Positions 24,587 through 43,965 of a DNA stretch of 64,000 nucleotides are shown here, in pieces. The translations under genes were made by a program, and so were the position numbers. The stretch is from Patescibacteria group bacterium. GTDB taxonomy: Bacteria; Patescibacteriota; Minisyncoccia; UBA6257; UBA11618. The stretch spans positions 2,332 through 66,331 of the forward strand of contig JBDRBW010000008.1 of assembly GCA_043822345.1 (NCBI GenBank), given 5' to 3'. Position 1 is the first letter of the stretch, and every line of letters begins with the position of its first letter. The notes below the pieces were generated by a model. That model had not been told where the DNA came from and did no database searches. It was given only the letters and a program-made list of their open reading frames with translations.

Positions 24587-26296
24587 ATGACCAACAAAGA
24601 GCTTTTAGACAAAATAGTGTCGGCCGATCTTTTGTCAGCTCAACGGGCTGACAAATTACTAGCAGAGGCCGAGGTTACCCACCAAAGCGTGGAGGATTTG
24701 CTATATGACCGGCGGTTGGTGGAGGAGATAGAAGTTGCCAGAATCAAAAGCAAGCTACTCGGCATTCCCTTTAAAAAAGTTAATATTAATAACATCAACG
24801 ACGAAGTTTTAGGGCTATTGCCCGAAGAGACGGTTACTAATTACAAAGTAGTGCCGTTGGGCAAGGAGGATAAGATGTTGGTTGTCGGCCTGGTTCATCC
24901 CGATGACCGGCGCGCCCAAGACGCCCTTCGTTATATTGCTAAGCAAAAAAAGATGAGTTTGGGGGTGTACCTGATAACTCCCAGCGATTTGGAGTTGGTA
25001 ATGCGCCGTTATTCGCCATTAAGCAGTCAGATTGAGGCGGCGGTGCGTTCCATACAGGTGAAACCAGGACGGGGCGAGGGGACGAAAAAAATTGGATTAG
25101 AGCAGATGTCCGAGGTTTCCGAGGAGGCGCCGATTATTAAAATCGTCGCCTCAACCTTGAAAGAGGCGGTCAGTATTGGCGCCTCCGATATTCATATTGA
25201 ACCCCAGCGGACTCGACTTCGGTTTCGCTTTCGGATTGATGGTATTTTGCGCGAGGAGCAATCCTTGCCCGCTGAATTGCACTCGGCGATTATCTCCCGC
25301 GTTAAAATTCTTTCCAACCTAAAAATTGATGAAAATCGTGTTCCCCAGGACGGCCGTTTTCGCACCGAAATTTTTGGTCGTGAAATTGATTTTCGTGTTT
25401 CCTCCTTTCCCACGCCATCGGGCGAAAAGGTGGCGATTCGCGTCCTTGACCCCAAAGTGGGTTTAAAACAACTAGATGAATTGGGGGTGAGCGGCCAATC
25501 CGAAGCGATTATTAAAAAAGGAATTGAAGAACCTTTCGGTATGATTTTAATTACCGGCCCTACTGGTTCCGGTAAAACAACCACGCTCTATGCCTTGATG
25601 CAGAAGCTCAATAAAGAAGATGTTAATGTTGTCAGTTTGGAGGATCCGGTGGAGTATACAATAGAAGGCGTTAACCAATCACAGGTACGGCCGGAGATCG
25701 GCTATACCTTTGCTTCTGGTCTGCGCCAGATTTTGCGCCAGGACCCTGACGTGATGATGGTCGGCGAGGTTCGCGATCGGGAAACCGCCGACTTAGCGGT
25801 ACACTCGGCGCTGACCGGCCACATTGTGCTCTCTACCCTGCATACTAATAACGCTGTCGGCGTTATTCCGCGCTTGATTGATATGGACGTTGACGCTTTT
25901 CTTCTGCCTTCGGTTTTGAATCTGATGGTCTCCCAGCGGCTGGTTTCCAAGCTTTGCCAAGAGTGTAAACAACAGGAGTCGCCGTCGGAAACAATTCAAG
26001 GGATTATTGAAAAAGAGGTTGGCGGTATGGTTAAGGGTCCCTATCAGGTTTGGAAGGCGTTGGGTTGTAAGGCGTGCAATAACAAGGGACGCAAGGGGCG
26101 GGTTGGCCTCTTTGAAGTTTTGCAGATGACGCCGCAGTTGGCCGATATCATCAACACCCAACCCACTGAAAATAAAATTCTGGAGGAAACTAGGCGGCAG
26201 AAGATGGTTACCCTCCGCCAGGACGGCATCCTCAAAGCGCTAGAGGGTCTAGTTAGTATTGAAGAAGTCCTCCGCGAAACCGCCGCATCTACGTAA
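24587..26296 (+). CDS. pilB: Type IV pilus assembly ATPase PilB (GspE family)
   Basis: N-terminal GSPII_E-like domain, Walker A GPTGSGKTTT, Asp/His boxes, and a C-terminal tetra-Cys (CQECK...CKACNNKG). Confidence 0.9.
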   Translation: MTNKELLDKIVSADLLSAQRADKLLAEAEVTHQSVEDLLYDRRLVEEIEVARIKSKLLGIPFKKVNINNINDEVLGLLPEETVTNYKVVPLGKEDKMLVVGLVHPDDRRAQDALRYIAKQKKMSLGVYLITPSDLELVMRRYSPLSSQIEAAVRSIQVKPGRGEGTKKIGLEQMSEVSEEAPIIKIVASTLKEAVSIGASDIHIEPQRTRLRFRFRIDGILREEQSLPAELHSAIISRVKILSNLKIDENRVPQDGRFRTEIFGREIDFRVSSFPTPSGEKVAIRVLDPKVGLKQLDELGVSGQSEAIIKKGIEEPFGMILITGPTGSGKTTTLYALMQKLNKEDVNVVSLEDPVEYTIEGVNQSQVRPEIGYTFASGLRQILRQDPDVMMVGEVRDRETADLAVHSALTGHIVLSTLHTNNAVGVIPRLIDMDVDAFLLPSVLNLMVSQRLVSKLCQECKQQESPSETIQGIIEKEVGGMVKGPYQVWKALGCKACNNKGRKGRVGLFEVLQMTPQLADIINTQPTENKILEETRRQKMVTLRQDGILKALEGLVSIEEVLRETAAST

Positions 26297-26385
26297 TAGT
26301 GTCATCCCGCACTATAGTGTCATCCCGCACTATAGTGTCATCCCGCACTATAGTGTCATCCCGCACTATAGTGTCATCCCGCACT
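26296..26385. repeat. Tandem array of 5 x 18 bp (atagtgtcatcccgcact) immediately after the pilB stop
   Basis: Five perfect direct repeats. Each unit is a mini-hairpin containing the family-1 terminus gtcatccc. ORF-track entry 26259-26513 is a spurious translation. Confidence 0.8.
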
Positions 26386-26470
26386 TGATGCGGGATCCAT
26401 TACATCACTGTCATCCCGGAATCCTTCCCATCTGTCATCCCGGAATTTCGCGCAGCGAAATATCCGGGAT
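26386..26470. repeat. Cluster of short palindromes related to family 1 (gtcatcccgca..tgcgggatc; gtcatcccggaatttcgcg...cgaaatatccgggatc)
   Basis: Read directly from the sequence. Confidence 0.5.
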
Positions 26471-26478
26471 CTATATTT

Positions 26479-26769
26479 ATGAAAATCTACTACGTCTATA
26501 TTTTAGCAAGTAAAAGACGTGGCACACTTTACGTCGGTGTAACTGATTATTTAATGCGGCGAGTGTATCAACACAAACATGGTTTAGTAGAGGGCTTCAC
26601 TAAAAAATACAAAGTGAACAGATTGGTTTATTATGAGCAAACAAATGATGTAATGAGTGCTATTAACAGAGAGAAGCAGTTAAAGAGGTGGCGACGACAA
26701 TGGAAAATAGAATTAATAGAAAAAGATAATCCAGAATGGAAGGATTTATACGAAGAGCAGTTTAAATGA
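26479..26769 (+). CDS. GIY-YIG nuclease-family protein (second copy)
   Basis: IYYVYILAS...TLYVGVTDYLMRRVYQHKHG...NRLVYYE; 96 aa. Confidence 0.65.
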   Translation: MKIYYVYILASKRRGTLYVGVTDYLMRRVYQHKHGLVEGFTKKYKVNRLVYYEQTNDVMSAINREKQLKRWRRQWKIELIEKDNPEWKDLYEEQFK

Positions 26770-26877
26770 TAGACGGTATGGATCCCGGATAGCCGCAAGC
26801 GGCTTCCGGGACGACAATGCGTTGCATTGTCGGTTATTCACAGTTTTATTTTTCTTTTAAGTGTTACAATTAAACCA

Positions 26878-28185
26878 ATGAAAAAGCAAAACGCTTTTTG
26901 GTTGATGTTTGCCATTATCATGGTTGGTTTTGTTTTAATTTGGGTTGGCGGTAGTTTTGGCTCCACATCGCAACCAAGGGTTCAAGCTGCTTCCTGTCTC
27001 GATCCACCAACTTGTCCTGACCCAATGACTTCGGCTTGTGTGCGAATTGAGCCCTCGGGTTCAATCTGTACTACTGCTAGTGGTTGGCGTAGTCCAAGTA
27101 GGGCTTGGTGCGGTGAATTAATGAGCGGTGGTCACTACGAACTTACTAATGGTGGTTGTGCCGCTCCGGGATTTGAAAGTTGCTCCGCTTGCACAGGAAG
27201 TAACTGCTATTCCCTTTCTTATGACTGTGCTGGCAGTACGCCAATACATAAGCCAGTAGTAAAATGCACCGAATGTTACAAGGGTCTGTGCGGAGAAGAG
27301 CCCCCTTGTGGTAATGGCAGGTTAGAACTAGAAGAATGTGAAGAGTGTGATGACAGCAATACTATTAGTGGCGATGGCTGTAGTGACAGGTGTGAGATTG
27401 AGGGCACCGATCCAGTTTGTGGCAATAGCAAAAGAGAGGGAGATGAAGAGTGTGATGGAGACGATATTGCTGATTGTCCAAGGCCCGATTGTGAATGCAC
27501 GATTAGATGTAACGATGATTGTGTATGTGTTTATGATCCGATTGAGCCAGAGTGTGGCAACAGCATTGTTGAACCGCCAGAGCAGTGCGACGACGGCAAC
27601 ACTGACGACACTGATGGTTGTATGAATTGTATGATACAAAAAGGAAATTGTGAGCCGTCAGGGCTTTGTGGCAATGGAGAAGTGACGCCACCCGAGCAGT
27701 GTGAAGGTAGTGGAAGTTGTGAGAGTGTTTGTGTGGGTGATAAAGAGGGATGGATAGAGTATTGTGGTGATAAGCCTCTAGGAGCCTGCTCAGGAGCGCA
27801 CTGTGAGGTAGATGGCGCTAGTTGTATTCCCACATTTGACGAGGATGGAATGGATAATTTCTGTCAAGGTATACCGAGCTGTACTGGAACTATTTTTTGT
27901 AAATTAGCTGGAGCAGGAGCGACCTGCAACCCCGATTCTTGTATGTGTGAACCGCCAGTAACCGAATGTGGTAATGGTATTACAGAACCACCAGAACAAT
28001 GCGACGATGGCAATAATATTGACGGCGATGGCTGCGGTAGCACCTGCGTAATAGAGGGTGGCGGTGGAGATTGTGGCGGTGTTACTTGTGGGAGTGGGGA
28101 GAAGTGTTGTATTTGCGATCCGTTTCATGGAATGGACTCATACTGCACTACTATCAGCGACTGCATCTGTCCAATTTCCGATTAA
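26878..28185 (+). CDS. N-terminally anchored cysteine-rich repeat surface protein (Myxococcus-type CxxC-x-PPEQCDDGN-x4-DGC repeats)
   Basis: Start MKKQNAFWLMFAIIMVGFVLIWV (TM anchor). Multiple ~38-aa repeats of the form CGNG..EPPEQCDDGNT.DGDGC..C. Confidence 0.7.
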   Translation: MKKQNAFWLMFAIIMVGFVLIWVGGSFGSTSQPRVQAASCLDPPTCPDPMTSACVRIEPSGSICTTASGWRSPSRAWCGELMSGGHYELTNGGCAAPGFESCSACTGSNCYSLSYDCAGSTPIHKPVVKCTECYKGLCGEEPPCGNGRLELEECEECDDSNTISGDGCSDRCEIEGTDPVCGNSKREGDEECDGDDIADCPRPDCECTIRCNDDCVCVYDPIEPECGNSIVEPPEQCDDGNTDDTDGCMNCMIQKGNCEPSGLCGNGEVTPPEQCEGSGSCESVCVGDKEGWIEYCGDKPLGACSGAHCEVDGASCIPTFDEDGMDNFCQGIPSCTGTIFCKLAGAGATCNPDSCMCEPPVTECGNGITEPPEQCDDGNNIDGDGCGSTCVIEGGGGDCGGVTCGSGEKCCICDPFHGMDSYCTTISDCICPISD

Positions 28186-28196
28186 TAAATAAACAT

Positions 28197-29840
28197 ATGA
28201 AATCAATTCCACTAAAAACGAAATTATCCAATCAAGCTCTATTTTGGGTGGTTTTTGTTGTGGTGGTTGTTGGATTAATATTGTTATTTGCTTTTAGTAA
28301 TAATTGGCGAGCGCTGGCGGACACGCAATATTGCACCGAAGATGGCTCTGGTGGTGTTTTTACTAATGCGCTTGGTTGGGCATCGCATGCCACTCCATTT
28401 TGTTGCGCTGGAAGTATAAGTTCGTGTATTTCGGTTCCTAGTTGCAGTGGTAGCGGTTGTTATCTCCATAATTTTTCTTGTATGGGAGACACACCAGTAA
28501 GCGCAGAAGATCCAATAAGTTCGTGTGGTAATGGAATTTGTGGTAATAGCACTCCAGAACCACCGGAGCAGTGCGACGATGGCAATACTGTGAGTGGCGA
28601 TGGCTGTAGTAGTACTTGTACTAATGAAGGGGGAGGAGGTTGTGGTAGTTGTGGTGATAGGGCGTTGAATTTGGGTGAGGGATGTGATGATGGCAATATT
28701 GTTGACGGTGATGGTTGTAGCAGTATTTGTGAGGATGAAGATGAAGTTTGGTCTACCAGCGAAGAATGTCAGAATGCCAATTACCCGCTCTGTTGTCCTT
28801 ATAACCCAGTAGTAAGTGGATTTACTCCTCTCGCGGGAACCGATTGCAGTGATCTTCCATTCCCTACCTGTTTTAATTGTGTGTTTGATTTATATCAAGA
28901 GACATGTGAACCGGGAATAGATGAAACGGCTTGCGCTGATTATGAGAGATGTATTTTCTGTAGTTGTACGCCTACGGGTACTCCTCACCCCGGTTTTTGT
29001 GGTGATAGTATTATAGATGAAGGTGAGGAATGTGATGATGGTCAGTATTGTGAGAATGGAACACCTTGTACAGAAGAGGATGATAGAGAATGTCTTGGTA
29101 TTGGTGATGGATTGTGCAAACCTCGCGGTGGCGATGGTTGTAGTTATTATTGTCAAATCGAAGGCGGTTTTTGTGGCGATGGCATTTTAGAGCCGCCGGA
29201 ATTTTGTGAAATTGATGCGGATTGCGCAATCTTTGGTTCTTCAAAATGCAAGAGCGATTGCACGTGCGATGAAATACCACCCGATGAATGTTTATATTGC
29301 GGTGATGGAATAGTAAACTTGAGTTTGGAGCAATGCGATGATGGCAATAATACCAACGGTGATGGCTGTAGTTATAATTGCAAGATAGAGACCGGTCCCA
29401 TGTGCGTAATCGGCGATGGCGTCATCAATCCTCCCGATGAAAATTGTGATACCGATGCGGATTGTGGAGAGTGTGTTCCTCATGAGGACTGCTTTGGTTT
29501 CATGTGCGAAGGATTAGATGCCGATAGTTGTGCGCATACAGAGTGTGTACCGGGAACATCTGGCAGTAGTTGTCCTAAAGTATGTACTCTTGATGGTGGC
29601 TACTGTGAACCCAGTTCCGGTCTAATAGATTACTGTACAGGATTAGAACCATCAGAGTGTAGCGGCTACAATCCAGTGGTAGGGGGGCCAAAAAATCCAT
29701 ATTGCGCAGGTAGTGGGGCAGGAACTTGTTACCCCGACACCTGTAACTGCGACTTGCCATTAGGCACGCCAGGGCAGATATGGGACAGTATTATTAATAA
29801 GACCATGAAATCATATCTTAATAATTATATTAATGAGTAA
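28197..29840 (+). CDS. N-terminally anchored cysteine-rich repeat surface protein, paralog
   Basis: Start MKSIPLKTKLSNQALFWVVFVVVVVGLILLF. The N-terminal ~145 aa are near-identical to the protein at 30721. Several CDDGN..DGDGCS repeats. Confidence 0.7.
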   Translation: MKSIPLKTKLSNQALFWVVFVVVVVGLILLFAFSNNWRALADTQYCTEDGSGGVFTNALGWASHATPFCCAGSISSCISVPSCSGSGCYLHNFSCMGDTPVSAEDPISSCGNGICGNSTPEPPEQCDDGNTVSGDGCSSTCTNEGGGGCGSCGDRALNLGEGCDDGNIVDGDGCSSICEDEDEVWSTSEECQNANYPLCCPYNPVVSGFTPLAGTDCSDLPFPTCFNCVFDLYQETCEPGIDETACADYERCIFCSCTPTGTPHPGFCGDSIIDEGEECDDGQYCENGTPCTEEDDRECLGIGDGLCKPRGGDGCSYYCQIEGGFCGDGILEPPEFCEIDADCAIFGSSKCKSDCTCDEIPPDECLYCGDGIVNLSLEQCDDGNNTNGDGCSYNCKIETGPMCVIGDGVINPPDENCDTDADCGECVPHEDCFGFMCEGLDADSCAHTECVPGTSGSSCPKVCTLDGGYCEPSSGLIDYCTGLEPSECSGYNPVVGGPKNPYCAGSGAGTCYPDTCNCDLPLGTPGQIWDSIINKTMKSYLNNYINE

Positions 29841-30702
29841 ATTAAATCTGCAAAAAATGAAATTAACCAACCAGCCGTTGTTTTGGCTAATATTCATTAT
29901 AATAGTCATTGGATTAGTTTTGTTGTTTACTATAGACGTTTTTGGAATTACTGGTCGTCAGACAAGAATTTTGGCTGGTGGATATTGTGGTGATGGAAAC
30001 GTTGATACTGGCTTGGGCGAACAGTGCGATGATGGCAACAGAATTATAGGCGACGGCTGTGATAACTGCCAAATTACAGGTGGCGGTTATTGCGGAGATG
30101 GTAATTTAGACGCCGGTGAAGAATGTGACGATGGCAATACTAATAATAATGATGGCTGCGCCGACTGTCGCAGGCAAACTCCAGGATGCGTTATTAGGTG
30201 TGGCAATGGAGAAGTGACGCCACCCGAGGAGTGTGATGATGGTAATCTCACTAACGGCGATGGCTGTAGTAGTACTTGTCAAAACGAGCGTCCCAGTCAG
30301 TGTGAATATCCAGTGTGTAGCGATATTAAAGATTGTGAAAAGTGTAATAGCTACGACGCCTGCCGTTGGGGAACACAGATAGGTGTTTGTTTGTTTATGG
30401 ATAAGTGTGAGCCGCCTCTAGTAGAGAGTATAAATGGTTGCGTGCCTTGTGGGGGTGTGGAGAGATGCGAGCCTGGCTCCTGTCCAAGTGGTTATTCTTG
30501 TTGCCTCGCTTCTAGTGGAGTCAGTGAGTGCGTCCTGGGTTTTGATTGTGGCGGCTTTATTCCTTGCGGCGACGGTCCCCCGTGTATGGCTGCAACAGAG
30601 GAGTGTTGTATGACGGCAACAATGGGGCCAACCTGCATACCCAAAGGAGCGCATTGTGAAAAAAGCGGACCCGGATCTCCTATTTTCTGGAGATGGAATT
30701 AG
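29833..30702 (+). CDS. N-terminally anchored cysteine-rich repeat surface protein, short paralog
   Basis: MSKLNLQKMKLTNQPLFWLIFIIIVIGLVLLF, followed by CGDGN..EQCDDGN repeats. Confidence 0.65.
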   Translation: MSKLNLQKMKLTNQPLFWLIFIIIVIGLVLLFTIDVFGITGRQTRILAGGYCGDGNVDTGLGEQCDDGNRIIGDGCDNCQITGGGYCGDGNLDAGEECDDGNTNNNDGCADCRRQTPGCVIRCGNGEVTPPEECDDGNLTNGDGCSSTCQNERPSQCEYPVCSDIKDCEKCNSYDACRWGTQIGVCLFMDKCEPPLVESINGCVPCGGVERCEPGSCPSGYSCCLASSGVSECVLGFDCGGFIPCGDGPPCMAATEECCMTATMGPTCIPKGAHCEKSGPGSPIFWRWN

Positions 30703-30720
30703 GGGTAATTAATAAAAAAG

Positions 30721-33700
30721 ATGTTTAACAAATCCAACTCACTAAAAACAAAATTATCTAATCAAATGCTTTTTTGGGTGGTTTTTGTTGTGGTGGTTGT
30801 TGGATTAATATTGTTATTTGCTTTTAGTAATAATTGGCGAGCATTAGCGGACACGCAATATTGCACCGAAGATGGCTCTGGTGGTGTTTTTACTAATGCG
30901 CTTGGTTGGGCATCGCATGCCACTCCATTTTGTTGCGCTGGAAGTATAACTTTGTGTATTTCGGTTTCTAGTTGCAGTGGTAGCGATTGCTATCTCCATA
31001 ATTTTTCTTGTATGGGAGATACACCAGTAAGCGCAGAAGATCCAATAAGTTCGTGTGGTAATGGAATCTGTGGCAACAACAGCGTTGAGCCGCCAGAGCA
31101 GTGCGACGATGGTAATACTACTGATGGCGATGGATGCAGTAGCGCTTGTACTAATGAAGGGGGAGGAGGTTGTGGCGATTGTGCAAATGATAGCGACTGC
31201 GTTGATATGGGGATGGGGGATCCTTCTAGTTCTTGTTATCTAGGTTTTGGCGGTAGTTCGTTATTAATGGTGGAGTGCGTAGTATCAACTGGGGAATGTG
31301 TTCTTGGTGAATGTGATAGGAATGAGGATTGCGGTATGTATGTTGATGGCGTGGGTTGGGCTCCTGGGCTTTGTGATTTTAGACAGAGGCCTTTTCCCGA
31401 TATCGAATCTGAGCGATCGGAAGGTTTATATGGTATATGCGCTCCCGATGCTCCTTGTTGCATGGGGAAAGAAGCGGGATACGAAGAATTTTGTTTTGGG
31501 TTTATAGAACCTGATCAATGTTCAGAAGCTCATTTACCAGGTAGTTTCGATTATCTTTGTCAATGGATTTGCCCAGTCTGCGGCAATGATATTTTAGAAC
31601 CGCCTTATGAACAATGCGACGACGGCAATACTACCAACGGCGACGGCTGTAGTTCTACTTGTCAAATCGAAGGCGGAGATATTTGCTGTGTACCTAATCC
31701 TGATTGCGGTGGTCTTGCCTGTGATGGTCTTAGTATAGAAGATTGTGAAAATTCTAAGTGTATTTCAGGCACTATTCCTGGTGGTGATTGTGTGCGGTCG
31801 TGCGCCTACTCTAGTGGTGAGTGTAAGCCCAGCGCCGGCGCAGGTGATCATTGTAAAGCATTATCAGATTCAGCGTGTGAAGCTGATCCCTATTGTAAAC
31901 CCGACCCTGACGCGGATTGTGGTTCTCCAAACTGCGAGGGTTGCGGTGATGGTGAAGTTAATGATCCAAAGGAAGAGTGCGACGACGGCAATAATGTAAG
32001 CGGCGACGGTTGTAGTTATAATTGCAAGATAGAAACTGGCGGTATGTGTGGCGATGGCATAGTAACTCCTCCTGAGGAGTGCGATGATAACAATAATATA
32101 GATGGAGATGGTTGTGCCGCGGATTGTACATATGAAGAGTGCCGCTTCTGTGGCGATGGAACCGTAGACTCTGATATTGGCGAGCAGTGTGAAGGTAGTG
32201 GAAGTTGTGAGAGTGTTTGTGTGGGTGATAAAGAGGGATGGATAGAGTATTGTGGTGATAAACCCTCAGGAACCTGCTCAGGAGTGCACTGTGAGGTAGA
32301 TGGCGCTAGTTGTATTCCCACATTTGACGAGGATGGAATGGATAATTTCTGTCAAGGTATACCGAGCTGTACAGGAACTATTTTTTGTAAATTAGCTGGA
32401 GCAGGAGCGACCTGCAACCCCGATTCTTGTATGTGTGAACCGCCAGTAACCGAATGTGGTAATGGTACCGTGGACCCAGGCGAGGAGTGCGACGACGGCA
32501 ATCATAATAGCGGCGACGGTTGTAGTTATAATTGCAAGATAGAAACTGGCGGCATGTGCGTAATTGGCGATGGGATTATTAATACTCCCGATGAAAATTG
32601 TGATGGTGATGGGGATTGTGCTTCTGTTGGTGGTTGTGTAGCAAATCCTGAGAAGAATTGGCAGGATTGGTGTCAATGGCTTAGTGGGCTTCTCGGTGGT
32701 GGTTGTGCGGCGATTGGACCAGAGTGTCAATTAGAAGGCGGTTTATGTGTGCCTGGGCCAGTGTTAGACGACCCCGAAGAAAGACAATCCGCTTGTGATT
32801 TGGCGGGTAGTTTATCAGAGATGAGATGTCGTGATGCTTATCATGCAGGTGACGCGGGACCAGATGATGGAGGATGTAAGTGGGTTGAAGAAGGAGGCGG
32901 TGGCATCTGCAACCCCGATTCTTGTATGTGTGAAATACCACCAGCCGAGTGTGGCGATGGCATAGTAACTCCTCCTGAGGAGTGCGATGATAACAATAAT
33001 ATAGATGGCGATGGCTGTAGCGCTACTTGTCAGATTGAAGGCGGTATGTGCGTCATTGGCGATGGGATTATTAATACTCCCGATGAAAATTGTGATGGTG
33101 ATGGGGATTGCGGGGGAATTTGTGTATCTTCGCCGTTAGAGTGGCAAGATTTTTGCCACATGGAACCCATAGATGATTGTACCTCATTCTATTGTAAAGT
33201 AGATGGCACGGAATGTGTCCCTGCATTTGATGACGAGGGAATGGAAGATTATTGTTCGATCAGAAAAATTGAACCAAGGTGTTGGAATATATTTTGCAAA
33301 TGGGCTGATAAGAGTACCTGCGACCCCGATACCTGTATGTGTGAACTTCCAGAGCCTGAATGTGGCGACCATGTAATAGACCCACCCGAGCAGTGCGATG
33401 ATGGTAATCGCACCGATGGTGATGGTTGTGATAAGAATTGTAAAGATGAAACGGGTAAAAAAGTATGCGGCGATGGTGAAGTCAATCAACCCGAAGAGGA
33501 GTGCGATGAAGGTACTGCTGATACAGCGACCTGTGATAGAGATTGTACCCTCGTGGCTTGTGGTGATAATCATGTAAATACTGTGGCTGGCGAGCAGTGT
33601 GATGATGGAAATACCAACAATAACGACGGTTGTAGCGCCTCCTGTCAGTGGGAGTCGGCGACTGGCTGTATTCCTCTTCGAGCAAATCAAAACGAAACAG

Positions 33701-34431
33701 CTGATGTGATAAATATAGTTTACGTCGCCTTTAACTACAGCTCTCCTGCTGATTTAGTTCCCAAAGCTACTCAGTGGATGAATGCATTATTAAGTGTTGA
33801 TCCTTTTATTGCCGAAAACCAGAAACTTCAATTTTGGGTAGCCGACACTATGCCGCCAGCAACACCTGGCGCTGGTGGAGGTTGTTGGGATAAATGTGGT
33901 GGTGGTTCGCGTGGAGCATATAGTTCGTATTGCCCGACATTGCCTAATCGAATCCATACTGTTGGCTGTAATTACACTTGCCGTAGCGCGGCATGGACTA
34001 ATGGTGGACCTATTTATATGGAATCTGACGAACCAAGAATATTGTATGTATCTACTCATGAATTTGGCCACGCCCTTGGTGGATTAGCTGACGAGTATGT
34101 AGAGCCTATTAAAGGCGACCAGTGGAGAGCTCCTAACTGTGCAAATAATAATGCGCAGGCCAATACTTGGTGGGGTTCACGAATAGGAACTGGTGATGTG
34201 GGAATGTTTGAAGGTTGTTCTTATGTGATGGATAATCGTCGACCTAAGGCTAACGGACTAATGAACGGTGATACGAGTCTTCCTTATCCATTTACTACTG
34301 ACTACGGCGATATTAGCGTAGAAAGACTTATAGAGCGACTCGCCCCTTATTCTGGAAATCCTTTGCTAACATTTCTTACAAGATCGTTATTTGTATTTAA
34401 ACCTTTCGAATTTATTTTCAAATTACTATGA
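30721..34431 (+). CDS. Giant (1236 aa) N-terminally anchored cysteine-rich repeat protein with a C-terminal M64-like zinc metallopeptidase domain
   Basis: Has more than 10 Myxococcus-type Cys repeats. The C-terminal ~250 aa contain VSTHEFGHALGGLADEY, an HExxH...DEY arrangement resembling the IgA-peptidase M64 family. Confidence 0.7.
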   Translation: MFNKSNSLKTKLSNQMLFWVVFVVVVVGLILLFAFSNNWRALADTQYCTEDGSGGVFTNALGWASHATPFCCAGSITLCISVSSCSGSDCYLHNFSCMGDTPVSAEDPISSCGNGICGNNSVEPPEQCDDGNTTDGDGCSSACTNEGGGGCGDCANDSDCVDMGMGDPSSSCYLGFGGSSLLMVECVVSTGECVLGECDRNEDCGMYVDGVGWAPGLCDFRQRPFPDIESERSEGLYGICAPDAPCCMGKEAGYEEFCFGFIEPDQCSEAHLPGSFDYLCQWICPVCGNDILEPPYEQCDDGNTTNGDGCSSTCQIEGGDICCVPNPDCGGLACDGLSIEDCENSKCISGTIPGGDCVRSCAYSSGECKPSAGAGDHCKALSDSACEADPYCKPDPDADCGSPNCEGCGDGEVNDPKEECDDGNNVSGDGCSYNCKIETGGMCGDGIVTPPEECDDNNNIDGDGCAADCTYEECRFCGDGTVDSDIGEQCEGSGSCESVCVGDKEGWIEYCGDKPSGTCSGVHCEVDGASCIPTFDEDGMDNFCQGIPSCTGTIFCKLAGAGATCNPDSCMCEPPVTECGNGTVDPGEECDDGNHNSGDGCSYNCKIETGGMCVIGDGIINTPDENCDGDGDCASVGGCVANPEKNWQDWCQWLSGLLGGGCAAIGPECQLEGGLCVPGPVLDDPEERQSACDLAGSLSEMRCRDAYHAGDAGPDDGGCKWVEEGGGGICNPDSCMCEIPPAECGDGIVTPPEECDDNNNIDGDGCSATCQIEGGMCVIGDGIINTPDENCDGDGDCGGICVSSPLEWQDFCHMEPIDDCTSFYCKVDGTECVPAFDDEGMEDYCSIRKIEPRCWNIFCKWADKSTCDPDTCMCELPEPECGDHVIDPPEQCDDGNRTDGDGCDKNCKDETGKKVCGDGEVNQPEEECDEGTADTATCDRDCTLVACGDNHVNTVAGEQCDDGNTNNNDGCSASCQWESATGCIPLRANQNETADVINIVYVAFNYSSPADLVPKATQWMNALLSVDPFIAENQKLQFWVADTMPPATPGAGGGCWDKCGGGSRGAYSSYCPTLPNRIHTVGCNYTCRSAAWTNGGPIYMESDEPRILYVSTHEFGHALGGLADEYVEPIKGDQWRAPNCANNNAQANTWWGSRIGTGDVGMFEGCSYVMDNRRPKANGLMNGDTSLPYPFTTDYGDISVERLIERLAPYSGNPLLTFLTRSLFVFKPFEFIFKLL

Positions 34432-35423
34432 TCAAAGTAACAAAAAACAACTTAATCTGGGTCTTGATAGGAATTGTTATTGCTATTGCTGTAATAGCAT
34501 TGGCGACAGGGGTGGTTTTTCCTAATACTCAGCCGCAGGCCGCTGGTGAGGATGTTGGTATAGGGGATTGCAACAGGATTAATCAAATAAATGCTTCTGA
34601 TGAGACAAGACGACTAATGTGTAACAATATTGCCAATTGCTTCTGGCGACCAGGACCACCTAGTCTTTGCCTCGAGAATCTAGCAGGAGAGTTTTCGGCT
34701 TTATCTATTGATTTAGTTCGGCAAGCGGACGGGAATTATAAAGTTCAGGAGATTAGACCTATAATCAGTAGATATCCAGTTAAGCCGGCTTTTGATGAGG
34801 GTAATATTCTAGCTATCAGAACGGCTGATGGAGATTTTTTCCAAACCTTCTCCTCCGTCGACATGCTTATGGGGGACGATTTTACAGGAGAATCTCCTAA
34901 ATCTGACAATAGAGAAGTAATCCGTGAATCGATGACTATCGAGGTGGGTGTAGGAGATCAACCTCTTGGTACCCCCGACAACTATAAAGTTGTTGTCAAG
35001 TCATGCGATAGTTATGATGACAATCCCGATAATGATTGCTCTAAAGAGTTCAGTGATTTTTCTAATGAAGATGAGTTTGAGTGGATTTGTAATGTCGCAG
35101 AAGGTAATCATCCCAATGGTAGCTGTTGCCAATGTAACAACGGTCGAGGTGTAGATGTAACCGCGATAGTTAAATCTCAGTGCGTTGATAGCAATCTTCT
35201 CTATTGTATGTTCAGTTATGGCGTTGAGGCCTTCGCCGAGTATGGTGGCGATTGCCAATCGGGATGCAATAAGATTACTACCGTTCAGTATTCTTGCCGA
35301 ACCAACGATATAAGCACGAAGCAGTTTATTAATAATGGTAAAGATGGAGTAGGAATATTATATTGTTTTGGTGGTAGAATTAATGTTATTAGCGCCACTT
35401 TTGGCGGCCCAGAAATAAAATAG
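34428..35423 (+). CDS. N-terminally anchored Cys-rich hypothetical surface protein
   Basis: TM anchor IWVLIGIVIAIAVIALATGVV; 331 aa with scattered Cys; no recognised domain. Confidence 0.5.
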   Translation: MIKVTKNNLIWVLIGIVIAIAVIALATGVVFPNTQPQAAGEDVGIGDCNRINQINASDETRRLMCNNIANCFWRPGPPSLCLENLAGEFSALSIDLVRQADGNYKVQEIRPIISRYPVKPAFDEGNILAIRTADGDFFQTFSSVDMLMGDDFTGESPKSDNREVIRESMTIEVGVGDQPLGTPDNYKVVVKSCDSYDDNPDNDCSKEFSDFSNEDEFEWICNVAEGNHPNGSCCQCNNGRGVDVTAIVKSQCVDSNLLYCMFSYGVEAFAEYGGDCQSGCNKITTVQYSCRTNDISTKQFINNGKDGVGILYCFGGRINVISATFGGPEIK

Positions 35424-35490
35424 CGGGAGATTAAATATTAAAATAGTTATACACACAAGCAGGTTTTTTAAGGAAATCAGTTATTAGAGT

Positions 35491-36939
35491 ATGAACGAAG
35501 ACGCGCACTATTTTATTATTAAAGGTATTGTTGTTGTTCTAATAATAACAGCAGTGTTTTTGTCGTGGCAGACTTTTTCTAAAGTTAGTGTGTTAGTAAG
35601 AGCGACAACTTTCAATTTCAACCCAGATTTCGACCTAGAGGCTTTTATTAGAGATTTTACCACAACTGGTGGTTATTCTACCCTAGAGGATGACGTAAGA
35701 GATTCAAGAGGAGTTTTTAGTCTACCAGCAGACATTACCCCAGACCGGGTAGCGGGAACAACACTAGTGGGTGTTGGCAGATCAGTTTCCCCATTCTTTA
35801 CCCCACCATCATCGCCTGTTTGTGGTGATGGTACATGCGAATCACCTGAGAACACAACAACTTGTATAGCCGATTGCCCTCCACCTCCACCTATCTGTGG
35901 TAATGGATCTTGTGAGTCGCCTGAGAGCTCGACGACTTGCCTAGTCGATTGTCCTCTCCCCGCAGCGGTTTGCGGTAACGGGACATGTGAATCACCCGGC
36001 GAAGACTCGGGGATTTGTCCAGCTGATTGCCCACTAGTTGGTTGTGGTAACGGGACTTGTGAAGTAACCGAGGATGCAGCGAGTTGTCCAGCTGATTGTT
36101 CATTGTTTATTATATCTTCACCTGTCTGCGGTGACGGGGCTTGTGAATTGGGGGAGACTTCGACAAGTTGTATGATCGACTGTCTTTTTGCGCTCACTTT
36201 TGCAGTAGCTTCACCTGTTTGCGGCAATACGATTTGTGAACCACCCGGCGAAGACTCGGGGAGTTGTCCAGCTGATTGTCCGCCACCCGTCACGCCTTCC
36301 TGTGGCAACGGGCTCTGCGAATCGGTAGTTGGTGAGAGTTTTGGGAGTTGTCCATTGGATTGTCCACCATCAACACCTGGTTGTGGTAGTTGTGATCCTC
36401 TTGTTGACCCCAGCTGTTTTGCTGGTGGAGGCGGAGGTACGTCTGGTTATGGATTCTGTGACTCGGCAGATGGAGAAACCCTACTTAATTGCCCAGAAGA
36501 TTGCGGCGGTGGCAGCGGCGGGAGTTGTCTTTATGAGAATATTTGCAACCAACCTGGTGGGTGTGTGACCAGCTCTTTTACGCCTCCTATACACTCAATA
36601 GGATACATAGATAGTTACCTTCAAGTTTGTGGGGACGGGTTAACTGATTTTGGCGAAGATTGGGGGACGACCTGCACACCAGAAGGCAAGATCGAAATGT
36701 CAGAGCGATATGGATGTGGCAATAGGCTATGTGAGCGAGGTGAAGAGGATACCTGTCTAATAGATTGTTCGATACCGGCCGGCACGGCGTGTGGTGATGG
36801 TGTTTGTGAAGGGTTTGAAAGTTGTATTACTGGTGGTTGTAGCAAGGCTCAAATGTTGGGAATGGGAGTGTGTGTAGTAGATTGTGGAGACCCAGGATCT
36901 GCGTGGTGGACCCGGTCCTTCTCCCTATATCCTTTATAG
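35491..36939 (+). CDS. N-terminally anchored surface protein with seven ~21-aa CGNG-x-CE-x5-7-CPxDCP repeats
   Basis: Repeats read CGDGTCESPENTTTCIADCP, CGNGSCESPESSTTCLVDCP, CGNGTCESPGEDSGICPADCP and so on. Confidence 0.6.
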   Translation: MNEDAHYFIIKGIVVVLIITAVFLSWQTFSKVSVLVRATTFNFNPDFDLEAFIRDFTTTGGYSTLEDDVRDSRGVFSLPADITPDRVAGTTLVGVGRSVSPFFTPPSSPVCGDGTCESPENTTTCIADCPPPPPICGNGSCESPESSTTCLVDCPLPAAVCGNGTCESPGEDSGICPADCPLVGCGNGTCEVTEDAASCPADCSLFIISSPVCGDGACELGETSTSCMIDCLFALTFAVASPVCGNTICEPPGEDSGSCPADCPPPVTPSCGNGLCESVVGESFGSCPLDCPPSTPGCGSCDPLVDPSCFAGGGGGTSGYGFCDSADGETLLNCPEDCGGGSGGSCLYENICNQPGGCVTSSFTPPIHSIGYIDSYLQVCGDGLTDFGEDWGTTCTPEGKIEMSERYGCGNRLCERGEEDTCLIDCSIPAGTACGDGVCEGFESCITGGCSKAQMLGMGVCVVDCGDPGSAWWTRSFSLYPL

Positions 36940-36965
36940 GTATCAAAAATGCAAAAAATATAAGA

Positions 36966-38348
36966 ATGAAATTCAACATAAAAATAAGTACAAAAAAACG
37001 ACCAATCTGGGAGGTTCCTTTAATTATAGCGCTACTGGTAGTACTAGTGGGTACAACAGCCACATGGGAAGATCGCCCGGCTGTTACTAGGGCGCAAACT
37101 CCACCGTCACCACCATCAGCAGCAATAACCCAAGCGCAAGATGAGTTTGCGAGCTATATGGCGGCTATTCATATAATTAATAGTGGCTTTGAGACTACTA
37201 AAATAAGAGTGGGGATGGTTATAGGCAGAGAGACAAACTGGAAAGCGCTGATGGTACAGAACCAGTCGAGTATAGGTTTTCTTGGAAGTTGTCTTTATTG
37301 TGTAACAAATGCGATACGCTACTGCCGAAATAACGGTACTACATCAACCCCTGCGCAGGAAATTTCTAATGCCAATCAAAGAATTAACAATCTTCGAGGT
37401 TTATTTAATGGACCTTCGGGCAAGATGTATCTAGCGGAGAAGGAGCTAAAGAAGCCAATAAATCAGACGAATTGGCTCATGGTTGTTGATGCTATAGAAA
37501 CTGCAAACAATATGGTTACGAGTGTTAACGCAGTTGATATCTGTACCGATTATGTAGCCATGGAGGATCAGGCGATCATGACCGGTGCAAGTGTAGTCTT
37601 TACTGTTGCTACTGCTATTCTGATGCCACTGAGTGGCGCGGTAGCTGCTAGAATAGTTGGCGGCAGTGCCACTGCCGTTGCTCCGACCTCAGCCGGATTA
37701 ATGGCATCTGTCAAAGCGGGGGCTCTTTCCGGTGCCGTGCTATCGGGTGGATCATCTATTATTAATAACGTTAGCGACGCTGAGTTTGGTAAACAATCAT
37801 GGTTAAATGCGTCTCTTAATATCGCTGCCGACAGCACTATTGGTCTTGCTGTTGGCGCAGGTTTAGGGGGTGGATTTCATTTTGGAACGATGGGAATGAA
37901 AAAATTAGTGATTTGGTTGGCGGTGCGGATGCGGGCCAACCCAAATATAACTCCGGCACAGGTTAAGGGCTTGGTAGTAAGAGCTAATAGGGCTCAAGAA
38001 ATTAGAGGTACGGCAGCTAAATTAAAGAGCCAGATAGATGGTATGGAAACTAGTAATAATGCTCAAAAGGCTAAATTAGTTAGAGAGTGGACCGAGTTGG
38101 CTCGTCAGGCTGGAACTAAGGCTAACCAAAACAATTGCATAAGAGATAAAAAATTATCAAGTATTTTAAGGAGAATGAAGATTAAAGAGGCGGAGCTGGC
38201 GGATCTCCAGCTCGCTATCGATAGTGGTTTTGGTGGCAATGAGCCGTTCAGAAGATCAACTGCTCGGGCGGCACTTGCAGGTATGGAAGCGCAATATCAA
38301 GCTATATTAGGCGAAATAAACACAGCGTTTCCACCTCCTGCGCCATAA
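36966..38348 (+). CDS. N-terminally anchored hypothetical protein with Ala/Gly-rich and C-terminal coiled-coil regions
   Basis: Start MKFNIKISTKKRPIWEVPLIIALLVVLVG; 460 aa. The ORF-track start at 36870 is probably over-extended. Confidence 0.5.
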   Translation: MKFNIKISTKKRPIWEVPLIIALLVVLVGTTATWEDRPAVTRAQTPPSPPSAAITQAQDEFASYMAAIHIINSGFETTKIRVGMVIGRETNWKALMVQNQSSIGFLGSCLYCVTNAIRYCRNNGTTSTPAQEISNANQRINNLRGLFNGPSGKMYLAEKELKKPINQTNWLMVVDAIETANNMVTSVNAVDICTDYVAMEDQAIMTGASVVFTVATAILMPLSGAVAARIVGGSATAVAPTSAGLMASVKAGALSGAVLSGGSSIINNVSDAEFGKQSWLNASLNIAADSTIGLAVGAGLGGGFHFGTMGMKKLVIWLAVRMRANPNITPAQVKGLVVRANRAQEIRGTAAKLKSQIDGMETSNNAQKAKLVREWTELARQAGTKANQNNCIRDKKLSSILRRMKIKEAELADLQLAIDSGFGGNEPFRRSTARAALAGMEAQYQAILGEINTAFPPPAP

Positions 38349-38427
38349 TCTAACGCGCCGGGTCAGACTCGGCGCGTTTATTTTTTTATCCACAGAGTTG
38401 TTTGTGGTACACTTAAATCACAAAGCA

Positions 38428-38536
38428 GTCATTTCGAGCTTGTCGAGAAATCTCATAATCGTCGTAATAAAGTTGATGAGATCCTTCGATATGCTCCCGC
38501 CGAAGGCGAGGCTCGCCCTTATGGGCGGCAGGATGA
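38428..38536. repeat. Family-1 variant/composite element abutting the pilT start
   Basis: Reads gtcatttcgagcttgtcgagaaatctcat ... gctcccgccgaaggcgaggctcgcccttatgggcggcaggatgacg. One module is the reverse complement of a module in the 17164-17286 copy. Confidence 0.7.
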
Positions 38537-38547
38537 CGAATGACGAT

Positions 38548-39618
38548 ATGGATTACAAAACTAAACTTAACGAGCTGCTACTGGTAACAGCGCGGCAAAA
38601 TGCGTCGGATTTACACATCAGCGTTGGCCGCCGCCCGATTTTGAGAATAGATGGCCGATTAATTCCGCTAGAGAAGGAACCAATTATTACTCCGGAAATC
38701 GCCGAGGGGTTGGTTATTGCTATGCTTTCCACTGAGCAAAAAACGCGTTTTCTTAAGGAGAAGGAGATTGACCTCTCTTACGCTTTTGAAGACAAGGCGC
38801 GTTTTCGTGTCAATGTCTTTTTTCAAAAAGGTTTTATGGCCGCCGCCTTGCGCTTAATTCCCTCCCACATCAAGACCGTTGAAGAACTTAATCTACCGCC
38901 GATTCTTCATGATTTTACTAAGCTGTCGCAGGGCTTTGTTTTGGTAGTTGGTCCAGCTGGCCACGGCAAATCAACCACTTTAGCGGCTCTCATTGATGAA
39001 ATTAATAAAAACCGCACCGAACACATTATCACCATTGAAGATCCGGTAGAATATCTCTTTACTCAAGACCGCTCCATTATCTCTCAAAGAGAAGTGCGTC
39101 AAGACACTATTGATTTCCATCACGCTCTCAAGTCGGTTCTGCGCCAAGACCCCGATGTCTTGATGATCGGCGAGATGCGCGACCGCGAGTCAATGGCGAC
39201 GGCGATGACTGCCGCCGAGACTGGCCACCTTGTTTTCTCTACTCTACACACCAATTCCGCCGCCCAAACCGTTGACCGCATCATTGATAGTTTTCCCGCC
39301 GAACAGCAGGGGCAAATTACCTCGCAACTAGCAGGTACATTGGTGGCTATTATCTCCGAACGTCTGCTTCCGCGGGTTGATGGCGGCCGGGTTCCGGCTA
39401 CCGAGGTAATGATTGTCAACTCCGCCATTCGTAATTTAATTAGAGAAAACAAGGCCTATCAGATTGACTTGGTCATTGAAACCAGCTTACAAGAGGGGAT
39501 GGTTACTCTTAATCGTTCGCTGGCTAATCTGGTGAAGAAACGGGTTATTGCATTGGAGCAGGCGGAAAGCTATTCGCTTAATCCATCGGAGTTGAGAATA
39601 TTAATAGAGAAAGTATAA
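38548..39618 (+). CDS. pilT: Twitching-motility ATPase PilT (start at MDYKTKL; an alternative ATG at 38533 lies inside the repeat)
   Basis: Walker A GPAGHGKSTTLAA, ASDLHI, His box. The tracked ORF from 38398 translates through the repeat and is over-extended. Confidence 0.85.
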   Translation: MDYKTKLNELLLVTARQNASDLHISVGRRPILRIDGRLIPLEKEPIITPEIAEGLVIAMLSTEQKTRFLKEKEIDLSYAFEDKARFRVNVFFQKGFMAAALRLIPSHIKTVEELNLPPILHDFTKLSQGFVLVVGPAGHGKSTTLAALIDEINKNRTEHIITIEDPVEYLFTQDRSIISQREVRQDTIDFHHALKSVLRQDPDVLMIGEMRDRESMATAMTAAETGHLVFSTLHTNSAAQTVDRIIDSFPAEQQGQITSQLAGTLVAIISERLLPRVDGGRVPATEVMIVNSAIRNLIRENKAYQIDLVIETSLQEGMVTLNRSLANLVKKRVIALEQAESYSLNPSELRILIEKV

Positions 39619-39624
39619 CACATC

Positions 39625-39706
39625 GTCATCCTGAGGGCGAAGTCGAGTCTGACTCGACGTAGCCCGAAGGATCTTTAAAAAGATTCTTCACCTTGTTCAG
39701 AATGAC
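39625..39706. repeat. Family-1 palindromic element
   Basis: Reads gtcatcctgagggcgaagtcgagtctgactcgacgtagcccgaaggatctttaaaaagattcttcaccttgttcagaatgac. Confidence 0.7.
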
Positions 39707-39720
39707 ACAATAAACGTCAT

Positions 39721-40929
39721 ATGAAATTCAAATATAGCGCCAGAACAAAAACGGGGGAGATGCAGGTGGGTAATATTGAGGCCGTCAACCGCGAAGCGGC
39801 TTTGGCGACTCTTAATAGCCATGATCTTTATGTTTTAAGTTTAGAAGGCGAGGCGCCGGCGGTTTGGTATAACCGATTATTGAGTATTTTTAATCGTGTT
39901 AAGCGCAGTGAACTGATGATTTTTACCCGGCAATTTGCCACTATGCTTGACGCTTCCATTCCGCTCAACGATGCCCTCAAAAGCTTATATCGCCAGACCA
40001 GAAATCCTATCCTCAAAGAGGCGGTCTTTGATATCTCCTCCGATATTGATTCCGGGTTGTCGCTATCTCAAGCGCTGGAAAGGCAGGCGCACATCTTTTC
40101 CGAATTTTATATTAATTTAATTAAATCAGCTGAAGTAACCGGCGAGGTGGAGGCGGCCGCCAATTTTTTGGCTGATTATTTGGAAAAAGAGCAGGCGCTG
40201 GTCTCTAAAATTCGTAATGCGATGATTTACCCCACTTTTGTCATCGTTCTTTTTGTTATTACTAGCGCCGTGCTTATTGGCGTGGTTTTCCCCCAGTTGG
40301 AGCCGGTTTTTACCGAAGCGCAGGTGGAATTACCGCTTATTAGCCAGATATTTTTAGGTATGGGTAATTTTGTGGCCAGTTGGTGGCTAATCATTATCAT
40401 CGTTGCCATTATTATAATTGTGTTGTTAATTGACTATTTCCGCAGTGATGAGGGCAGAGTGGTTTGGGATCAGCTGGTAATGAGCTTACCGGTATTTGGC
40501 AAATTACTGCGCCAGTCATATGTGGCCCGTTTTGCCGAGGCCACCAGCGTTTTGATTAAAGGCGGTATTCCCATCGCGCAGGCGATTGAAGTCGGTTCGC
40601 ATACTATCGGCAGTTTTATTTATCAGGATGTGCTAAAAGATGTCGCTAATCGGGTGCGCCGCGGCGAATTATTATCCCAGGCGCTGGAGAGCAACGACGA
40701 GTACTTTCCGCCGTTAGTTAGTCAGATGGTGGCGATTGGCGAGAAAACCGGCCGCTTAGAGCCGATGCTGTCCAAGGTTTATGATTTCTATAGCCGGGAA
40801 ATAAACAATTTGGTGGAAAATCTGGTTGAATTAATCCAACCGATATTGATATTAATAATCGGCGCCTTTGTCGGTCTGTTATTTGCCTCAATTCTTCTGC
40901 CGATTTACAATTTAGTTCAGGTATTTTGA
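39721..40929 (+). CDS. pilC: Type IV pilus inner-membrane platform protein PilC (GspF family)
   Basis: 402 aa with two GspF-like repeats, three TM segments, and an N-terminus typical of PilC. Confidence 0.85.
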   Translation: MKFKYSARTKTGEMQVGNIEAVNREAALATLNSHDLYVLSLEGEAPAVWYNRLLSIFNRVKRSELMIFTRQFATMLDASIPLNDALKSLYRQTRNPILKEAVFDISSDIDSGLSLSQALERQAHIFSEFYINLIKSAEVTGEVEAAANFLADYLEKEQALVSKIRNAMIYPTFVIVLFVITSAVLIGVVFPQLEPVFTEAQVELPLISQIFLGMGNFVASWWLIIIIVAIIIIVLLIDYFRSDEGRVVWDQLVMSLPVFGKLLRQSYVARFAEATSVLIKGGIPIAQAIEVGSHTIGSFIYQDVLKDVANRVRRGELLSQALESNDEYFPPLVSQMVAIGEKTGRLEPMLSKVYDFYSREINNLVENLVELIQPILILIIGAFVGLLFASILLPIYNLVQVF

Positions 40930-42320: not shown

Positions 42321-42839
42321 ATGAATCGTGGGTTTACTTTAATAGAATCTTTGGTGGTGATTAGTTTGTTGGCGATTATGACATCTTTGCTGGTTTTGTA
42401 TAATCGCACTGGTGAGAAGCAGTTGATTTTAATTAAGGAAAAAGCGCAAATCGTTAGCATTATTCTAAAAGCGAAAAATCTTTCTTTTGGAGCGCTGGTA
42501 GAAGACGCCGGTACGGAAATAGTTTGCGGTTACGGCGTTTATCTGGAGGGGCGGCAATATTTTATCTATCGTGATTTAGCCGGCGATTGCGCTCTAAGCG
42601 ACCACCGCTATACACCCGACGTTGATGGCATTTTAACCAATGACAGCTTTACCTTGCCGGTGGCGCTGGAGTTTTCTGAGCTAGAAATGAATGATATTTT
42701 ATTTCAGCCGCCCACCCCAGACATTTTCTTTGATGGCAGTTTAGCTTTAGCGGCAAAAACTATTAAGTTGGCTGATTTAGAAAGAACAATCGAAGCCGAA
42801 ATAATTATCAATCATGCCGGACAAATTAACACTAATTAA
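42321..42839 (+). CDS. Minor pilin / pseudopilin (leader MNRG|FTLIESLVV)
   Basis: Prepilin-type N-terminal cleavage/methylation motif. Confidence 0.65.
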   Translation: MNRGFTLIESLVVISLLAIMTSLLVLYNRTGEKQLILIKEKAQIVSIILKAKNLSFGALVEDAGTEIVCGYGVYLEGRQYFIYRDLAGDCALSDHRYTPDVDGILTNDSFTLPVALEFSELEMNDILFQPPTPDIFFDGSLALAAKTIKLADLERTIEAEIIINHAGQINTN

Positions 42840-42841
42840 TC

Positions 42842-43860: not shown

Positions 43861-43862
43861 TC

Positions 43863-43945
43863 ATGAAAACACAAAAACACAAAAGCACCCGGCCTTCGGC
43901 CTCAAAACACATGAATAATTGTTTTCGTGTTTTCGTGTTTTCGTG
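43863..43945. repeat. Family-2 element (ACACAAAAAC direct repeats, GGCCTTCGGCC hairpin, inverted TTTTCGTGTTTTCGTG repeats)
   Basis: Read directly. Related copies lie at 43351-43395 and 50950-51033. Confidence 0.6.
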
Positions 43946-43965
43946 TTTTCGTGAACAAGGGCAGG

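Follow-up and report, generated by a model that had tools for sequence, protein, structure and literature searches.

In a stretch of 64,000 nucleotides (the window) from an uncultured, ultra-small Patescibacteria group bacterium, part of a 67,689-nt contig of a metagenome-assembled genome (MAG; locus-tag prefix ABH822, with proteins MFH1759086-MFH1759090), we found four same-strand open reading frames (ORFs), tightly packed in tandem at positions 26878-34431. The four genes, A to D, encode cysteine-rich repeat proteins and share stretches of near-identical DNA. They lie in an island of 12.2 kb between pilB and pilT of a type IV pilus operon; the island also holds three further genes, E to G. 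NCBI names exactly the products of A-D 'DUF4215 domain-containing protein [Patescibacteria group bacterium]' (MFH1759086-89). Spacing between the genes ranges from an 8-nt overlap, of the start of gene C with the end of gene B, to an 18-nt gap. All four are complete ORFs, each with its own start codon and N-terminal anchor. Their parts are as follows (positions are those of the window).

26878..28185, plus strand: gene A, 435 aa, 13.1% Cys (MFH1759086.1); membrane anchor at the N-terminus, then an N-terminal Cys domain; also three canonical DUF4215 repeats and one X module
28197..29840, plus strand: gene B, 547 aa, 11.7% Cys; has the anchor and the N-terminal domain
29833..30702, plus strand: gene C, 289 aa, 11.8% Cys; three DUF4215 repeats between the anchor and a Cys-rich tail unique to this gene
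30721..34431, plus strand: gene D, 1236 aa, 10.1% Cys; starts with the anchor and N-terminal domain, then has eight canonical DUF4215 repeats with X modules among them; M64-like domain at the C-terminus

All four proteins pass the curated thresholds of two profiles: PF13948 (DUF4215) in Pfam, and TIGR02232, the Myxococcus cysteine-rich repeat, which NCBIfam names 'cysteine-rich acidic repeat'. The PF13948 scores are 36 to 116 bits (cutoff 27; E = 2.9e-10 for gene A). The TIGR02232 scores are 87, 103.9, 78.4 and 256.5 bits for A, B, C and D (cutoff 20.8), with three to eight matched stretches. The canonical unit CG(N/D)G..(E/T)PPE(Q/E)CDDGN...GDGC...C occurs in 17 copies across the four genes, three to eight per gene, and the Cys framework C-G-x-G...E-x-C-D-D-G-N-x3-G-D-G-C-x3-C is present in all 17 listed units. 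Canonical units alternate with two kinds of non-canonical Cys-rich modules, the N-terminal domain and the X modules. The N-terminal domain is found in A, B and D, with only 26% protein identity between A and B across it. The X modules (90 to 130 aa) run from ...PPE.C(D/E).(D/G).(D/S)C to C.PD(S/T)C.C(E/D).P; A and B have one each and D has three or four. A HMMER profile built from five X modules, run against 1.84 billion representative proteins, matched A, B and D and no others; the X modules are therefore lineage-specific. A word-indexed homology search with B residues 1-125 and D residues 976-1236 gave no match; it is a weak negative since even the parent proteins were missed. An AlphaFold2 (AF2) model of an X module, made with a 5-sequence alignment, reached a predicted local distance difference test score (pLDDT) of 54 and was too poor for a fold search. 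A sequence search of the PDB found no solved relative of the gene A protein. Each of the A-D proteins is a singleton among 15 billion proteins clustered at 90% identity.

The A-D proteins are acidic and contain 10 to 13% Cys. No protein rich in Cys is encoded outside the island, where every window protein has 3.1% or less. All seven island proteins (A-G) start with a hydrophobic helix, which in each of A-D follows a basic stretch. The pilin N-terminal methylation motif PF07963 has no match in A-G, and their N-termini lack GFTLIE. The N-termini of A-D suggest proteins that are anchored N-terminally or secreted, and the anchors and extreme Cys content together point to display on the cell surface, where A-D may take part in attachment or host interaction. 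The label 'variable surface antigen or adhesin', given in the first-pass annotation of this DNA, should be taken as a prediction.

Shared DNA tracts and their ends

The shared tracts were mapped by self-BLASTN, ungapped identity profiles and a diagonal scan.

27693..27979, plus strand: tract 2, copy in A; X module EQCEGSGSC...CNPDSCMCEPPVTECGN; 97.6% identical over 287 nt ungapped to the D copy
32181..32467, plus strand: tract 2, copy in D; X1 module
28242..28537, plus strand: tract 1 core, copy in B; membrane anchor and N-terminal Cys domain; 97.0% identical over 296 nt ungapped to the D copy
30772..31067, plus strand: tract 1 core, copy in D; extended homology 30708-31183
29328..29466, plus strand: block 3, copy in B; canonical repeat and X-module head; 81% identical to 32482-32620 and 76% to 32977-33113
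27667..27696 (A) = 30199-30228 (C), plus strand: exact run of 30 nt, encodes CGNGEVTPPE
32046..32105 = 32949-33008 (both D), plus strand: exact run of 60 nt
32563-32618 = 33055-33110 (both D), plus strand: exact run of 56 nt
31999-32042 = 32509-32552 (both D), plus strand: exact run of 44 nt
32412-32439 (D) = 32907-32934 (D) = 27924-27951 (A), plus strand: exact run of 28 nt

Both long tracts are non-repeat modules, an X module in one case and the anchor plus N-terminal domain in the other, and gene D holds the partner copy of both. Tract 2 with its diverged shoulder reaches 28034/32522 (92.4% over 342 nt by BLASTN). The extended match of tract 1 is 28181-28653 versus 30708-31183 (89.5% over 478 columns by BLASTN); past its core lies a diverged canonical repeat (60 to 90%), followed by a 31-nt exact run (B 28615-28645 = D 31145-31175). 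The anchor and N-terminal domain of the B and D proteins are 91% identical over approximately 145 aa, and the remainder approximately 30%. Outside the tracts the partner proteins are just 26 to 30% identical. No match to the array, and no further copy of it, was found elsewhere in the 64-kb window.

The first-pass annotation had described paralogous Cys-repeat genes with a mosaic structure and three near-identical DNA blocks. The mosaic family is borne out by the family scores above and by the three-way structure of gene A described below; the blocks fared unequally. For the first (28211-28650 versus 30739-31180) an identity of approximately 95% had been given. We measured 91.0% over this span (403/443 columns, 4 gap columns), and it is the 296-nt core within it that is near-identical. 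The second (27691-27975 versus 32183-32467) is indeed near-identical, with its register corrected by 4 nt. The third (29380-29460 versus 32535-32615) shows 79% identity, 81% at best, and its unit recurs a third time in D; this is family-level similarity only, high but ordinary. The proposed self-alignment, made by BLASTN together with identity profiles and a diagonal scan, showed two long tracts at approximately 97% and placed the third block at 79 to 81%.

The paired copies of the long tracts differ at seven to nine positions, and their longest exact common run is 103 nt. The differing codons are three synonymous and three non-synonymous in one tract and four of each in the other, so that about half are synonymous. 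The differences within the tracts are clustered (28311-28316; 27772-27798), and in tract 2 five of the six differing codons fall within the 27 nt of 27772-27798. Such a cluster could be a small unconverted patch or the trace of a second, shorter event.

The identity of the two long tracts stands far above the background of the family. Among the 17 canonical units, pairwise DNA identity is 55% at the median and reaches at most 83%. In tract 2, mismatches number 8/288 in the core versus 43/93 in the homologous flanks (Fisher p = 8e-23); in tract 1 the figures are 9/296 versus 13/52 (Fisher p = 8e-7). The same holds at third codon positions, with 3/96 mismatches in the core versus 18/31 in the flank for tract 2 (p = 6e-11) and 4/98 versus 9/18 for tract 1 (p = 3e-6). 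When both proteins were held fixed and the codons redrawn from the family's own usage, the DNA identity obtained was 75 to 78% (maximum 84% in 2000 trials), compared to the 97% observed. It was concluded that the identity reflects recent common descent of the DNA and not constraint on the protein.

The tracts end sharply, and they end in repeat motifs. At the left edge of tract 2 (27693) identity rises from approximately 30-60% to 100% within about 10 nt. It drops at 27980 and at 28538, each of which is the start of a CGNG repeat motif. Tract 2 begins within the EQC codons of a degenerate repeat head, and its end coincides with the ECGNG at the opening of the next canonical repeat. The canonical repeats adjoining the tracts are homologous in the same register and only 57 to 90% identical. 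The 30-nt exact run shared by A and C adjoins the left end of tract 2 and overlaps it by 4 nt, which places a mosaic junction in gene A, where C-like and D-like sequence meet within the PPE(Q/E)C motif. With its C-like head and D-like X module, this gene is a three-way mosaic. Because the background identity is low, the synonymous sites are conserved and the ends fall sharply at repeat motifs, we consider the tracts to be products of recent non-allelic recombination. The recent recombination or duplication that the first pass had proposed behind its first two blocks is thereby upheld.

Origin of the shared tracts

We consider it likely that A-D are a real, lineage-specific tandem family of membrane-anchored, extracellular, disulfide-rich modular proteins that evolves by non-allelic homologous recombination. 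In the mechanism we propose, the conserved DNA encoding the repeat motifs PPEQC and CGNG would supply short stretches of homology, through which whole modules could be copied or converted, between genes and within one gene. Two recent events of approximately 290 nt would account for the long tracts, one involving the X module of A and D and the other the anchor and N-terminal domain of B and D; the exact tracts of 28 to 60 nt would be additional traces. Gene conversion between modules that were already homologous is the explanation we prefer, since the 97% core of either tract is nested in older, diverged homology. Such nesting, with ends in repeat-wide motifs, is the pattern expected of non-allelic gene conversion. 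Copy-and-insert duplication of modules is a possible alternative source of the tracts.

In its plain form, a recent segmental duplication (domain shuffling) would have copied a module once and inserted it elsewhere, with no conversion and no ongoing exchange. We regard this as doubtful. It agrees with the left edge of tract 2, where DNA identity falls to a near-random 27 to 47% within 20 nt, and with the presence in gene D of a partner of both tracts; the divergence of the two tracts is alike (2.4% versus 3.0%) and compatible with a single burst. A single module copy whose flanking canonical repeats were later overwritten from other paralogues would also look alike. Both cores, however, sit in older homology of the same register: the shoulders of tract 1 are 80 to 87% identical on the left and 60 to 90% on the right, followed by the 31-nt exact run, and the right shoulder of tract 2 is 57 to 80% identical. 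The several shorter exact tracts with different partners (A/C; D/D four times) suggest repeated events.

Programmed antigenic or adhesin variation would mean high-frequency shuffling of modules between an expressed gene and donor cassettes, with a changing cell surface as the outcome. Gene-conversion-driven surface families of this kind are Neisseria pilE/pilS, Borrelia vlsE, Treponema tprK and Mycoplasma genitalium MgPar. The A-D array resembles them in having short near-identical tracts between divergent surface-type paralogues, bounded by conserved homology sequence. The recombination tracts here join tandem paralogues, the units swapped are lineage-specific modules and not the scaffold repeats, and the array lies within a type IV pilus operon, an apparatus which reportedly mediates host binding in cultivated Patescibacteria (PMC11623550). 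We nevertheless judge programmed variation improbable. In contrast to the systems named, the locus has no layout of expression site and silent cassettes: A-D are all complete same-strand ORFs with start and anchor, and promoterless or truncated cassettes are absent. No inverted repeats of at least 40 nt were found in 25000-40000, and Pfam and NCBIfam scans of the island proteins found no recombinase or reverse transcriptase. There are just two long tracts, each already 2.4 to 3% diverged, and exchange is therefore not very frequent. The first pass had also spoken of cassette exchange as in antigenic variation; truncated silent copies, inverted repeats, an island recombinase and mismatches of the retroelement type discussed below are all missing, and we do not retain this part.

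Three candidates were rejected. Cassette-type antigenic variation, with an expressed gene and truncated silent donors, does not agree with four complete genes and the lack of more copies in the window. Invertible or site-specific shufflon-type variation, for example in Mycoplasma vsa/vsp, involves inverted repeats at gene 5' ends and a site-specific recombinase; the array is on a single strand, with neither the inverted repeats nor a recombinase domain in the ranges and proteins covered above. Recent foreign origin of the island has no compositional sign, as its GC content (0.42 to 0.47) is the same as that of the flanks.

An assembly artefact would consist of collapsed or chimeric joins, or of strain variants of one locus laid out as two. 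The contig is from a MAG, and repeats of approximately 290 nt at 97% identity are longer than a short read. Misassembly is nonetheless an unlikely source of the tracts, and we give it very little weight. Every copy has distinct flanks on both sides, and the reading frame is intact through each junction. With seven to nine differences and a longest exact run of 103 nt, 150-nt reads or large k-mers suffice to tell the copies apart. Nor would a second copy arise from a chimeric join, which would exchange the tails of genes.

Diversity-generating retroelements (DGRs) are common in genomes of the Candidate Phyla Radiation (CPR), and the tracts encode Cys-rich folded modules, but strong purifying selection on these modules or a DGR template/variable-repeat pair can practically be dismissed: protein conservation predicts the far lower DNA identity of the resampling and third positions are almost invariant, the tracts of approximately 290 nt are longer than typical DGR repeats, mismatches in both tracts are mixed (G/A, C/T, T/C, G/C, T/A) and adenine-specific in neither direction, and neither the seven island proteins nor the GIY-YIG gene at the island's left edge gave a reverse transcriptase match in Pfam and NCBIfam.

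Several points weigh against recombination within a surface-exposed family as we propose it. The assembly of this repeat-bearing region is provisional. No orthologous locus or strain variant was present in any collection searched, and any direction, timing or recurrence of the exchange would be conjectural. A metagenome scan with D returned only repeat-level relatives, mostly at 27 to 49% identity (higher over very short segments), and no strain variants; an exact scan of viral contigs and a plasmid megablast gave no match. Conversion and module duplication leave similar patterns here. The surface-adhesion function is a prediction from anchors, Cys content and context.

Other DUF4215 loci, fetched for comparison, also contain internal DNA repeats that are 88 to 94% identical. 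Recombination among the A-D paralogues is thus real yet ordinary for a repeat-protein family, of which it is a clear example. Mildly notable are the use of orphan modules as the exchanged units and the position of the array inside a pilus operon.

The pilB-pilT island and the C-terminal domain of gene D

26297..38532, plus strand: island, 12.2 kb, between pilB (24587-26296) and pilT (~38533-39618)
26479-26769: GIY-YIG gene, followed by A-D
34428-35423: gene E
35491-36939: gene F
36966-38348: gene G
38352-38388: terminator
21789: pilM
23637: pilO
24587-26296: pilB
~38533-39618: pilT
39721: pilC
40978: pilin
41363: prepilin peptidase
42321-44336: minor pilins

PF07963 matches the true pilins of this operon at 40978, 42321 and 43351. 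A PilB-anchored genome scan provided 80 related syntenic Patescibacteria loci (PilB identity up to 76%), of which about 70 were informative for the gap between pilB and pilT. In relatives with both genes on the contig the gap is 11 to 950 nt, except for two (2.2 and 3.1 kb), compared to 12.2 kb here. Homologues of A-G were found within 10 kb in none of the 80 loci. Because the gap in relatives is short and contains no A-G homologues, the array is best described as a lineage-specific accessory island inside the pilus operon. In the two exceptions, the 3.1-kb insertion codes for one secreted protein (714 aa) and one anchored protein (206 aa), and the 2.2-kb insertion encodes a multi-pass membrane protein and has two small genes besides. 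Accessory envelope genes may recurrently occupy the pilB-pilT junction.

At the left edge of the island, an 18-nt unit, ATAGTGTCATCCCGCACT, is present in five exact tandem copies beginning right at the pilB stop codon (26296-26478). Two more TGTCATCCCGGA motifs follow the tandem copies, and an inverted copy is at 26805-26816; motifs of the TGTCATCCCGGA type occur nine times in the window, with 0.33 expected by chance. The GIY-YIG nuclease gene (96 aa, 26479-26769, PF01541 E = 2.5e-14) is bracketed by GTCATCCCG-type repeats at 26296-26478 and 26780-26820. Repeats and gene together look like a small mobile or repetitive extragenic palindromic (REP)-like element.

Gene E (4.8% Cys) overlaps the stop codon of D with its start by 4 nt (ATGA). 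Gene F encodes an anchored protein of 482 aa with 10% Cys and about nine copies of a repeat of approximately 25 aa, C G (N/D) G x C E x P (E/G) ... C x x D C P, which is unlike the DUF4215 repeat; one pair of its repeats (35963-36032 / 36212-36281) has 84 to 86% DNA identity. Gene G is Ala/Gly-rich with a helical C-terminal part. Pfam and NCBIfam scans found no match for F and no family for the N-terminally anchored E and G. Gene G is followed by a strong intrinsic terminator (38352-38388) with a 12-bp stem and T7 tail, and a palindromic element, GTCATTTCGAGC...GGCAGGATGAC, lies between the terminator and pilT. For pilT, the TTG start given in the ORF list (38398) probably lies too far upstream, and the ATG at 38533 is the better choice, since relatives align from about residue 46-51.

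The C-terminal part of the gene D protein differs from the repeat modules.

33646..34428, plus strand: C-terminal domain of gene D, last 261 aa; carries HEFGHALGGLADEY, with HEFGH at 34057-34071

It contains the M64 active-site motif HEFGHxxGGLADEY (34057-34098) with spacing identical to that in peptidase M64 (IgA peptidase-like; 4df9, 3p1v). PF09471 scores 28.5 bits on the isolated domain (cutoff 26) and 21.1 bits on the full protein. Unlike in M64 proper, just 27 of the 302 profile positions align, and beyond the motif the 261-aa domain shows no detectable M64 similarity. The PDB matches 4df9 and 3p1v are at motif level (E = 0.04 to 0.06), and a single-sequence AF2 model was unusable (pLDDT 34). 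We regard the domain as a putative M64-type zinc metallopeptidase with predicted protease activity. Gene D may therefore encode not simply an adhesin but a protease held on a disulfide-rich stalk.

Relation to known repeat proteins and meaning for Patescibacteria

Homologues of A-D with DUF4215 number more than 6,000, mostly in Myxococcota, at approximately 30% identity. The four genes resemble DUF4215/TIGR02232 proteins in their scores above the curated cutoffs, their three to eight canonical units and their acidic, Cys-rich composition. They differ in that the host is a member of Patescibacteria, orphan X modules interrupt the repeats and an orphan N-terminal domain precedes them. Gene D in addition carries the M64-like peptidase motif, and none of the top homologues lists an M64 domain. 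DUF4215 proteins are abundant but functionally uncharacterised; one protein with a DUF4215 domain, Ca5255, was reported in work on the adhesive-trail proteins of diatoms (bioRxiv 10.1101/2023.03.06.531300).

In Peribacteria, a CPR lineage, Anantharaman et al. (2016, PMC4736985) described clusters of signal-bearing, very Cys-rich extracellular proteins weakly similar to the Myxococcus cysteine-rich repeat, proposed that they act in attachment and observed strain variation in them. The locus studied here is likewise a cluster of Cys-rich, extracellular-type proteins in a CPR genome, as compared by description and not by sequence. It belongs to another CPR lineage, and its proteins have 289 to 1236 aa versus a mean of 1655 aa and 10 to 13% Cys versus approximately 7% (PMC4736985). 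Here, moreover, the array is inside a type IV pilus operon and recombination tracts are explicitly shown.

Among the factors by which uncultivated Patescibacteria may recognise and attach to host cells, a largely obscure matter, the foremost candidates are type IV pili and Cys-rich extracellular proteins. The A-D locus puts both in one transcriptional neighbourhood. It is also a clean sequence-level example of module exchange in which lineage-specific modules are the exchanged parts. More speculatively, and with low confidence, the island could be a host-recognition toolkit of an episymbiont embedded in the pilus operon, in which DUF4215 repeats serve both as a rigid, disulfide-bonded stalk and as portable DNA homology arms while orphan binding modules are swapped. 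Were this true, it would amount to built-in exchange of modules among co-expressed surface proteins, one of them a tethered protease, that changes host or substrate specificity. If exchange is ongoing in populations, the locus would be a tractable marker of CPR surface diversification. As the evidence stands, the locus is a well-documented instance of ordinary recombination between paralogues of a repeat-protein family.

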